Shown here: one piece after another, positions 935-2,417 of the stretch
Position numbering within the stretch: position 1 is the stretch's first letter
Layout: the number at the start of each line of letters is the position of its first letter
From: Escherichia coli
Lineage (GTDB): Bacteria; Pseudomonadota; Gammaproteobacteria; Enterobacterales; Enterobacteriaceae
DNA length: 3,274 bases
NCBI RefSeq assembly: GCF_003334405.1
Contig: NZ_QOWM01000035.1
Direction: 5' to 3' (one strand)
The notes under the pieces: model-generated
Seen by the model: the letters and a program-made list of their open reading frames with translations, nothing else
Database searches by the model: none
What the model was told of the DNA's origin: nothing
Program-made: the position numbers and the translations under genes

Positions 935-960
935 AATGACCTGTGATGGTTTTATATTAG

Positions 961-1240
961 TTCCTGGAGTTGCGCCCGTAGTTCGCTGACGCTCACACGC
1001 GCAGTACAGCGCCCCGTCCAGGGAAATCCTGGACGGCGTAAACTCGCTGGCGCGAGCGCTAACTGCGGCATTCTGCGGCGCAAATCAGCGTCATCGTTGT
1101 CTGCGAGTCAGTCGGGCTTAGCAGGGCGGGAAGGTGGTCGTGGTTCCGGTCGGTTACGGTAGCGGCGTTGCCGCGTTTCGGGGCGATGTGGCTCCTGTGC
1201 TGCCCTGGTATTTTCGTTCGCCCCTTCCATCCGCTTACGC
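961..1240. other. GC-rich non-coding segment of unknown nature (candidate structured RNA, gene relic or recombination-site remnant)
   Basis: Hand count 177/280 G+C (~63%) against ~36% for 1381-1480. Hairpins: CGTCCAGG-gaaat-CCTGGACG (1015-1035) and GCGGC-gtt-GCCGC (1162-1174). 10-nt-period repeats: CTGCGGC at 1063-1069 and 1073-1079, GGTT(C/A)CGGT at 1142-1160. The only ORFs (1059..1262 -, 1168..1359 +) start at TTG with no SD. Confidence 0.4.
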
Positions 1241-1293
1241 GGATTAAAAAACGTGATAACAATCACTTATCGAGTAAAAAAACGGAAGAACAC

Positions 1294-1322
1294 TTGCAAA
1301 TACGACTTAAGGGTCGTATTAT
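1294..1322 (+). promoter_or_regulatory. sigma70-like promoter for the three-gene operon (TTGCAA, 17-nt spacer, TATTAT)
   Basis: -35 TTGCAA at 1294-1299 and -10 TATTAT at 1317-1322 with a 17-nt spacer, about 60 nt upstream of the first ATG. The predicted leader contains a GGGG-aatgg-CCCC hairpin (1336-1348). Confidence 0.45.
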
Positions 1323-1382
1323 TGTTTCATCGAAAGGGGAATGGCCCCTCTCACAATAGCCCAGCAGGGCAGGAGATTTAAA

Positions 1383-1682
1383 ATGAAATGCTCATCTGTT
1401 TTTACTTCAACCACTAATCATGTTTTCACATTCGAACGAGTAACGCTTTGCACTATTATCCTTATGCATAAGGATACGGGACAACAGTATGTTGTCATAT
1501 TTACTGATAACAATAAAATTCGTGACTATAAAACCGGAATTGTTCCTCAGTTTGGCGAACTTAAGCAGAGTGATGTTGATTTAGTCCTTTTCTACAGGGA
1601 CGAATATGAAAAATATTTTGATTCGTTAAAAGATGGCGATGAATGCTTGAGTTTTAAAGATTTTATTGAGTGCCTTCGTTAA
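1383..1682 (+). CDS. hypothetical protein (99 aa), first gene of the operon
   Basis: SD AGGAG at 1371-1375, 7 nt before ATG 1383. In frame with listed ORF 1341..1682, but the 1341 start lies inside the leader hairpin and lacks an SD. No family recognised. Confidence 0.55.
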   Translation: MKCSSVFTSTTNHVFTFERVTLCTIILMHKDTGQQYVVIFTDNNKIRDYKTGIVPQFGELKQSDVDLVLFYRDEYEKYFDSLKDGDECLSFKDFIECLR

Positions 1683-1690
1683 GCATTATA

Positions 1691-1716
1691 AATGCAGGGG
1701 GGAACCCTGCATTTTC
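1691..1716 (+). promoter_or_regulatory. intercistronic stem-loop (possible attenuator or partial terminator, or mRNA stability element)
   Basis: AATGCAGGG (1691-1699) pairs with CCCTGCATT (1705-1713) around loop GGGAA. A short U-run follows, then the SD of the next gene. Confidence 0.3.
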
Positions 1717-1734
1717 CTGAAAGGAGTTGATTTT

Positions 1735-2109
1735 ATGAAAAGTGTTTATGTTGTTGGCAAAGGTTTAATCGTTGCCGGTAATAAAATTACAATCGATGGA
1801 AAAGAGCATGTCTCGGTAGAAAATAGTGAAAACATTGTTGTCACTGATGATTGTATTAAAATTGGTAATAAAACAGTGGTTTTTAAAGGCAGGAGTATTA
1901 AGATAGAAATACATGGAAATGTAAATAAAATAGTAACCGAAAATGCTGATGTCAGTATTCATGGGAATGCTGGGGATGTTGAAACCGTGAGTGGTGATGT
2001 TGATTGTCGTCAGGTTAATGGCGATATAACCACTGTAAGCGGTGATGTTACTTGTGGCGATGTTTCTGGTGACGTAACCACTGTAAGCGGAGATATAAAC
2101 AGAAAATGA
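1735..2109 (+). CDS. Gly/Val-rich repeat protein (124 aa), predicted beta-helix, bactofilin-like
   Basis: SD AAGGAG at 1721-1726, 8 nt before ATG 1735. Product has recurring V-x-G-(D/N)-(V/I) elements at alternating 8-9 residue spacing (VSIHGNAGDVETVSGDVDCRQVNGDITTVSGDVTCGDVSGDVTTVSGDIN). Listed ORF 1666 start is TTG with no SD. Confidence 0.6.
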   Translation: MKSVYVVGKGLIVAGNKITIDGKEHVSVENSENIVVTDDCIKIGNKTVVFKGRSIKIEIHGNVNKIVTENADVSIHGNAGDVETVSGDVDCRQVNGDITTVSGDVTCGDVSGDVTTVSGDINRK

Positions 2110-2417
2110 TCACGGAATCGGATATGCTTACTGAAGCTAAAAAAATGGCAGTAGAGATGATGTTCTGGCCTGCTTGTCCTGTAGATGATGATTATTGTTT
2201 CGACGCTATAATGTATACATCAGTTATTGACAAGAAGTTTGAAGATGAACATGGGGTATATCTTCATCAGGTTTACAAAGAACTATGCTCAACACCTGAA
2301 TTAAAAAAACTTCTAAAAAAGAAAGCAATAAAATTGATTGCTTTTAAGCACGATATTGATCTTGATTCAGCTAACAAGACTTTAATGAAAAATATGCTAA
2401 GGAGGATTGAAAACTGA
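2106..2417 (+). CDS. hypothetical protein (103 aa), third gene of the operon
   Basis: ATG 2106 overlaps the upstream stop (ATGA at 2106-2109), so translationally coupled. Stop TGA at 2415-2417. No family recognised. Confidence 0.55.
   Translation: MITESDMLTEAKKMAVEMMFWPACPVDDDYCFDAIMYTSVIDKKFEDEHGVYLHQVYKELCSTPELKKLLKKKAIKLIAFKHDIDLDSANKTLMKNMLRRIEN

Follow-up and report, generated by a model that had tools for sequence, protein, structure and literature searches.

Several described proteins are built from short, regular turns of beta-strand. Toastrack domains (PF13349 DUF4097, DUF2154, and DUF2807; examples are PDB 4QRK, LiaG, the C terminus of LiaF, YvlB, and human FAM185A) are single-chain right-handed beta-helices with short repeats and S-G-D/N-[IV] turns, and they have a distinctive N-terminal seven-stranded intertwined region (PMC11237479). 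Bactofilins (PF04519; 2N3D and 6RIA) are small beta-helical proteins with V/I-x-G-rich repeats, three-sided windings of about 17 residues, and disordered terminal tails. The C-terminal triple-stranded beta-helix of T4 gp5 follows the octapeptide rhythm V-x-G-x-x-x-x-x and belongs to a tail protein with lysozyme and OB domains. Among the Ca2+-bound beta-rolls and RTX-like solenoids, region IV of MpAFP (PDB 3P4G) is extracellular and has 19-residue coils with a Ca2+-binding consensus.

Here, we describe a 124-residue protein encoded in a 3,274-nt stretch of Escherichia coli DNA, referred to below as the window. This protein shares with Toastrack domains a predicted single-chain right-handed beta-helix, short repeats with S-G-D/N-[IV] turns, and a predicted cytoplasmic location. 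Unlike them, it has about half the size of a typical Toastrack domain, falls below any Pfam threshold, and shows a strict 16-residue repeat with a conserved cysteine in each coil. It is also a stand-alone protein, with no transmembrane (TM) segment, no PspC, LiaI-LiaF-TM, SHOCT, or HTH partner, and no stress-response operon, and its family is borne by plasmids, ICEs, and phages. With bactofilins it has in common a small beta-helical build and V/I-x-G-rich repeats, but it shows no HMM or profile-profile similarity to them, its coil would comprise 16 residues in two 8-residue strands, and the disordered terminal tails are missing. Its rhythm resembles the gp5 octapeptides, whereas a 16-residue superperiod, a monomeric prediction, a nonsignificant profile comparison, the lack of lysozyme and OB domains, and a location outside tail modules set it apart. 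In contrast to MpAFP, its coils are 16 residues long, and it lacks both a signal peptide and the GGxGxD nonapeptide.

Results

Coding sequence and neighboring genes

The window was 100% identical to the E. coli plasmid NZ_CP070012.1 (32.6 kb), the transfer set of which is of the R6K/IncX type (ddp1/taxA, taxC, and a pir-like rep gene). The coding sequence (CDS; positions 1735 to 2109, plus strand) has its ATG at 1735 and its stop codon at 2107 to 2109 and specifies 124 amino acids. The sequence AAGGAG (1721 to 1726, plus strand), read as a Shine-Dalgarno sequence, lies 8 nt 5' of this ATG. The same CDS is annotated in RefSeq on NZ_CP070012.1 as WP_001473357.1, and together the open reading frame (ORF), the Shine-Dalgarno sequence, and the identical annotation bear out the gene call of the initial annotation, which had placed the middle gene of an operon here. 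For some orthologs, PGAP gives a 138-aa form with a start 14 codons further upstream (L002:4697-4738). The upstream ATG of that form sits inside a hairpin, and comparison with window positions 1692 to 1734 showed that the corresponding codon in the window is ATA; the 124-aa form is therefore the conserved one. With a good Shine-Dalgarno sequence in front of the ATG at 1735, the 138-aa ortholog models were probably assigned a wrong start.

The gene is the second of three small genes. The first (1383 to 1682, plus strand) is annotated as encoding a hypothetical protein of 99 aa; its last 40 residues match PHROG 2061, a PHROG of unknown function, with an E value of 2.7e-10, so that this gene also has phage relatives. 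The third (2124 to 2417, plus strand; 97 aa according to PGAP) has an alternative ATG at 2106 that overlaps the stop codon of the second gene, and it gave no match in the family searches. Between the first two genes, at 1692 to 1712, lies a GC-rich hairpin, ATGCAGGG-GGGAA-CCCTGCAT, followed by TTTCC. It is kept in relatives with a varying loop and may be an attenuator or an mRNA stability element. Further elements 3' of the third gene included a strong hairpin with a 13-bp stem (2428 to 2457), an unannotated 45-codon ORF (2492 to 2629), a bidirectional terminator-like hairpin (2637 to 2657), and a perfect TTGACA-N17-TATAAT sequence (2665 to 2693) in front of hicA. At 469 to 934, an 83-aa ORF overlaps that of a 75-aa HTH protein with weak MqsA-family antitoxin similarity (TIGR03830; E = 1.2e-5, below the cutoff), and this pair could be a toxin-antitoxin-like or regulator pair that ends the upstream operon. 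PADLOC returned no match for the solenoid protein or its neighbors.

A 16-residue repeat with a predicted solenoid fold

Lag-16 identity and predicted strands delimited an array of 16-residue units (1885 to 2106, plus strand) with the consensus T-x-S-G-D-V-x-C-x-x-V-x-G-x-V-x. The units begin at residues 51, 67, 83, 99, and 115, corresponding to about 4.5 coils. Over residues 55 to 124, lag-16 self-identity was found at 25 of 54 positions, compared with 17 in the best of 20,000 shuffles. [VI]-x-G-[DN]-[VIA] elements occur at residues 59, 75, 85, 94, 101, 110, and 117, with spacings of 16, 10, 9, 7, 9, and 7. The V-x-G-(D/N)-(V/I) periodicity noted in the initial annotation is thus very strong, but the alternation is 9 and 7 residues, which sum to 16, and not 8 and 9 as had been stated. 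Ahead of the array, roughly 50 N-terminal residues make up a beta-rich domain (1735 to 1884, plus strand), in which alignments revealed the family motif INGxxxxGxxIxIxxGxVxVDG.

With a 117-sequence alignment as input, AF2 predicted an all-beta structure with a pLDDT of 80.8 overall and of 93 to 96 over the repeats. Predicted strands begin at residues 89, 97, 105, 113, and 121, i.e., every 8 residues, and the N-terminal 60 residues were modeled as six short strands with a pLDDT of 39 to 76. For the repeats, a single-chain right-handed beta-solenoid is the high-confidence prediction. Judging from DSSP strand spacing alone, each 16-residue coil would consist of two 8-residue strands, which would give two flat sheets.

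One cysteine is conserved per 16-residue coil (S-G-D-V-x-C), with a family median of 3 cysteines per protein, and the conserved cysteines would form a stacked ladder along the solenoid. All of the conserved positions are repeat-structural (glycines, SGD turns, valines, and cysteines), and surface positions vary freely. The protein is small, soluble, and mildly acidic, with a net charge of -5 (-7 for the repeats alone) and a pI of 5.05; the family has a median net charge of -4 and a median pI of 5.1, and 5% of its members are neutral. Neither a signal peptide nor a TM segment was recognized when the sequence was read.

A large family on plasmids and phages

The only strong family match was to PHROG 3163 (unknown function; E = 1.2e-21), with residues 12 to 124 aligned to profile positions 10 to 120 of 121, and this full-length match places the protein in that very large family, whose proteins have a size of about 110 to 130 aa. 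Sequence searches recovered 354 clusters at the 90% identity level and, at an E of <=1e-3, 1,177 at the 50% level, and nearly all of the members are 105 to 140 aa long. Common to them are the INGxxxxGxxIxIxxGxVxVDG motif and, after it, 3 to 5 copies of the 16-residue unit; SG[DN] motifs number 2 to 6 per protein and were spaced by 16 residues in 190 cases. Homologs were carried by 149 phage records, and the gene was found on 107 plasmids, all but one of them (106) conjugative. The carriers include conjugative plasmids (IncX-type and IncI2), ICE-like islands, and many phages. Very probably, then, the 124-residue protein is a 16-residue-repeat beta-solenoid belonging to a large, uncharacterized plasmid and phage family, PHROG 3163.

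Relationship to named protein families

The query matched no Pfam family, and nothing in NCBIfam exceeded its cutoff. YabP (Pfam; E = 0.65), the RiPP precursor TigB (NCBIfam; 19 bits, cutoff of 70), and YqfC (NCBIfam; 16 bits, cutoff of 78) were all rejected as artifacts of repeats or composition; the surroundings of the gene offer neither a radical-SAM nor a sporulation context. Family profiles gave no significant match to a solved structure when compared with PDB sequences.

Among the Pfam signals in the family, the commonest was Toastrack/DUF4097 (PF13349). The query itself gave none, but 9 of 117 members scanned individually matched at an E of <=1e-3 and 20 of 117 at an E of <=0.1 (best E = 1.2e-5), as did 3 of the 27 members of a smaller family alignment at an E of <=1e-3. 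In addition, PGAP names an ortholog "DUF4097 family beta strand repeat-containing protein." These marginal matches, seen in <20% of the members, suggest that, in sequence, the family is closest to Toastrack (DUF4097-type) domains. For a 16-residue coil with two 8-residue strands, Toastrack would also be a better fit than the three-sided bactofilin winding. The stress partners PspC, LiaI-LiaF-TM, two-component, and HTH proteins were absent from the plasmid, ICE, and phage neighborhoods examined.

The initial annotation had called the protein bactofilin-like, an assignment that these searches do not sustain. For PF04519, the query gave no match even at an E of <=10, and of the individually scanned members, 1 of 117 matched at an E of <=1e-3 (E = 1.6e-4) and 3 of 117 at an E of <=0.1. 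None of the 27 members of the smaller alignment matched; these include P0041, which bears the UniRef name "polymer-forming" and gave no Pfam bactofilin match even at an E of <=0.1. The family was also compared by hhalign with a bactofilin alignment, which consisted of the BacA (2n3d) and Thermus (6ria) sequences from PDB alignments and their close relatives. The comparison returned a probability of 7.5% over 10 columns, with a bactofilin profile that was shallow (Neff of 1.65, near-identical Caulobacter sequences). Structural similarity to bactofilin was no higher than that to dozens of unrelated solenoids. Foldseek searches of AFDB50 showed many family members to be automatically named "Polymer-forming cytoskeletal protein" or "CcmA." Because the family carries the former name, the bactofilin idea mirrors an existing database label, to which current models give no support. 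The protein is not a demonstrable bactofilin.

Age and stability of the repeat units

An exact DNA repeat had also been reported within the array, with a length of 15 nt and copies 48 nt apart. The repeat exists, but its true length is 16 nt, since both copies start one base earlier than reported. The two copies of TAACCACTGTAAGCGG, at 2027 to 2042 and 2075 to 2090 (plus strand), are 48 nt apart and span the codons for T99-T-V-S-G and T115-T-V-S-G, respectively. Of 2,000 trials in which synonymous codons were shuffled but the protein was kept constant, 36 (1.8%) yielded a perfect repeat of 16 nt or more, so the DNA identity only mildly exceeds what the TTVSG peptide leads one to expect; the repeat is somewhat above chance and not dramatic. 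Beyond the 16-nt core, the 48-nt units are only 42 to 65% identical in DNA, and hence whole units are not recent copies.

Four related sequences were compared, two from close IncX relatives and two from IncI2, one of the latter being a variant with 89% identity. Each of them retained the core TAACCACTGT in both copies, and the unit count did not differ. In the valine and serine codons, the third position drifts independently between the copies (GTA/GTC and AGC/AGT), and the perfect 16-mer of the window therefore hangs on one synonymous base; most relatives have GTC instead of GTA in the second copy. Relative to the 89%-identical IncI2 outgroup, 41 nucleotide differences were accompanied by only 10 amino acid differences, all conservative, which indicates purifying selection. 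Among the plasmid matches, 106 of 107 covered at least 80% of the CDS, and no 48-nt indel was present among the approximately 40 listed. Full-length spans among these 40 or so were 375 nt, except for one frameshifted copy of 374 nt and two matches of 371 nt, which represent the 89%-identical variant. Whole-block differences of approximately 16 to 17 residues were found only between distant homologs, and the repeat array itself is family-wide (>1,100 clusters at 50% identity).

Two proposals of the initial annotation do not survive these comparisons. The low identity of the units, the synonymous drift in relatives, and the family-wide array contradict a recent in-frame duplication, and the constant unit count in close relatives and the lack of 48-nt length variants among the plasmid matches listed contradict variation in repeat number. 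On the evidence of these alignments, the repeats are stable, ancient structural units that are selectively maintained.

Orientation and neighborhoods of the carriers

On NZ_CP070012.1, read in the present orientation, all of the genes from a J-domain gene through HicA/HicB lie on the plus strand, in the direction of ddp1-taxC (taxA/taxC). A co-oriented block of small genes is also present in IncI2 plasmids, and both the IncX-type and the IncI2 blocks point to the relaxase/oriT side. As a general rule, the relaxase gene enters last, and by this rule and its orientation the gene block would be a leading region, a reading that has to accommodate the two oriTs of IncX plasmids. One of these oriTs is located near taxC and the other near rep (PMC3402527). 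A direction toward the relaxase/oriT side is what would be expected of leading-region genes that are transcribed from the entering strand. Leading regions are enriched in anti-defense and establishment genes with this orientation bias (PMC11541004); the solenoid family was absent from the lists in the supplements of that study.

The ICE-like island context included TopB, DUF3560, and RadC. In phages, the neighbors were endolysin, RNA ligase, and phosphatase genes (GAP31 and KB57), DNA ligase and phosphoesterase genes (CBB), and methylase and dUTPase genes (a Vibrio phage). In the Vequintavirinae GAP31 and KB57 (L004:3950-4933 and L015:2938-3930), the homolog lies directly upstream of the endolysin gene. 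This position hints at a lysis- or envelope-related role in the Vequintavirinae, which is of interest given the link of Toastrack to envelope stress. When operon genes 1 and 3 were compared by blastp with the neighbors of distant homologs, nothing was found beyond the closely related IncI2 copy. Because the neighbors are unmatched outside close plasmid relatives, the operon is not a conserved system.

A repeated GC-rich cassette upstream of the operon

The operon is headed by a GC-rich, structured, noncoding cassette of approximately 385 nt (957 to 1340, plus strand), a second copy of which is 99% identical and located on the same plasmid. This second copy (L001:4881-5265) heads the J-domain operon. 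At its 3' end, in front of gene 1, the cassette contains a sigma-70-like promoter match, TTGCAA-N17-TATTAT (1294 to 1322, plus strand), which is a consensus match only. Related copies were present in 1,172 plasmids (93% conjugative), where they occupied 2,853 sites; the records listed had 1 to 4 copies each. In the IncX4 and IncI2 loci examined, nearly every copy is directly 5' of a small plus-strand operon. Over roughly the first 130 nt, the copies hardly vary, and this part folds into a long imperfect hairpin. In 7 of 16 copies, two base pairs of a terminal hairpin were swapped in a compensatory manner, and the single-strand folding z-scores were -3.2 and -2.8 for the two strands.

No match was obtained when the whole window was scanned with Rfam at an E of <=1. 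A BLAST comparison of the cassette with Frpo/ssi sequences (all five known sequences and 6 of 13 candidates; PMC11541004, Supplementary file 4) revealed no significant similarity, with a best E of 0.25. The cassette looks like a putative functional counterpart of the Frpo cassettes of F and ColIb; with its new type of sequence, it may act in priming or as a promoter on single-stranded DNA.

Discussion

Weighing structure, family, and function together, we assign a probability of about 0.55 to the following overall explanation: the middle operon gene encodes a 16-residue-repeat solenoid of the PHROG 3163 family, related marginally to Toastrack domains, that would serve mobile elements as a stand-alone binding protein. 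The functional part of this explanation is tentative, and we consider it possible without regarding it as likely. It holds that the protein would act alone, without a conserved partner gene, soon after the element enters the cell; as a rigid scaffold for protein binding, a decoy, or an inhibitor, it would then engage a host factor, in an establishment or anti-defense role. The scaffold or inhibitor reading was chosen because the conserved residues are structural, no partner is conserved, the block lies behind a repeated promoter cassette and is oriented to the relaxase/oriT side, and in phages the gene is placed with genes of nucleic acid metabolism and lysis. A bolder version is unlikely. According to it, the family would be an unrecognized, widespread class of mini, stand-alone Toastrack-like solenoids that act as early effectors of mobile elements and are made as soon as a plasmid or phage enters the cell, with the cassette, in IncX and IncI2 plasmids, as a new type of promoter in the role of Frpo and the solenoid as a rigid decoy that disables a host defense or stress-sensing complex.

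The same location and the same acidity could instead point to a DNA mimic comparable to the pentapeptide-repeat proteins Qnr and MfpA or to ArdA and Ocr, in which a ladder of aspartates would imitate the phosphate backbone and block restriction enzymes or DNA-binding defenses. One aspartate is conserved per half-coil (SGD and G-D/N motifs), the negative charge is concentrated in the repeats, and the gene is located in early regions of phages and, on the plasmid, in a block that resembles a leading region. However, with a family median charge of only -4 and some neutral members, the acidity is modest; Ocr, ArdA, and similar known mimics are far more acidic. Furthermore, pentapeptide-repeat and ArdA folds were absent among the top structural matches, and we regard mimicry of DNA as improbable. 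Much the same standing, quite improbable, is given to a divergent bactofilin, the beta-helix of which would polymerize end to end into nonpolar filaments that scaffold the plasmid or phage. The single member with a PF04519 match at an E of <=1e-3, the automatic names in AFDB50, a virus entry named Bactofilin, and a solenoid C-terminal end without an obvious cap and with only 2 to 4 basic residues would agree with such an origin. They are set against the failure of the query and of the 27-member alignment to match PF04519, the poor hhalign result against BacA and the Thermus bactofilin, and a structural likeness no greater than that to unrelated solenoids. The period of 16 with 8-residue strands also departs from the approximately 15- to 17-residue windings of BacA, and BacA's long disordered proline-rich tails are missing.

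A phage tail origin, in which three chains would intertwine into a gp5-like triple-stranded beta-helix spike of V-x-G-x-x-x-x-x octapeptides, is highly improbable. It would account for the 8-residue strand spacing, for weak phmmer matches to T4 gp5 beta-helix fragments (E = 0.046 to 0.07), for a match to the baseplate hub PHROG 430 (E = 0.035), and for the RefSeq/PGAP names "tail-associated lysozyme" and "phage tail protein." Those names, however, go back to a nonsignificant likeness to the T4 gp5 octapeptide beta-helix, which became weaker when the family profile was used (E = 2.4). The period that is conserved is not 8 but 16, and its two half-units differ; a monomeric solenoid is predicted with a pLDDT above 90; and the lysozyme and OB domains of gp5 have no counterpart. 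Plasmids and ICEs without virion genes carry the gene, and its phage neighbors are ligase, phosphatase, endolysin, methylase, and dUTPase genes with no tail modules among them. Equally hard to credit is a contingency locus, in which 48-nt units of one coil each would be gained or lost through slippage or recombination at the 16-nt direct repeats. The exact in-frame repeat, attained in few synonymous shuffles, and the whole-unit differences among distant homologs are what such a locus would leave behind, but the approximately 40 plasmid copies listed include no 48-nt length variant, a synonymous change breaks the exact identity in most relatives, and the units are too dissimilar overall. Moreover, recombination is not expected to be frequent between repeats of only 16 nt.

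The preferred reading, a stable 16-residue-repeat solenoid, concerns a fold that is in itself ordinary and a family that is large: it spans over 1,100 clusters at the 50% identity level, appears in 149 phage records, and has a place in the backbones of IncX-type and IncI2 resistance plasmids. Its members bear four conflicting database names, "tail-associated lysozyme," "phage tail protein," "polymer-forming cytoskeletal protein," and "DUF4097," and the present analysis corrects the annotation in that the first three lack support. If an early establishment role is true, the family would represent a new structural class within the establishment and anti-defense repertoire of clinically important plasmids, and the repeated GC-rich cassette would deserve study as a possible single-strand promoter analog.
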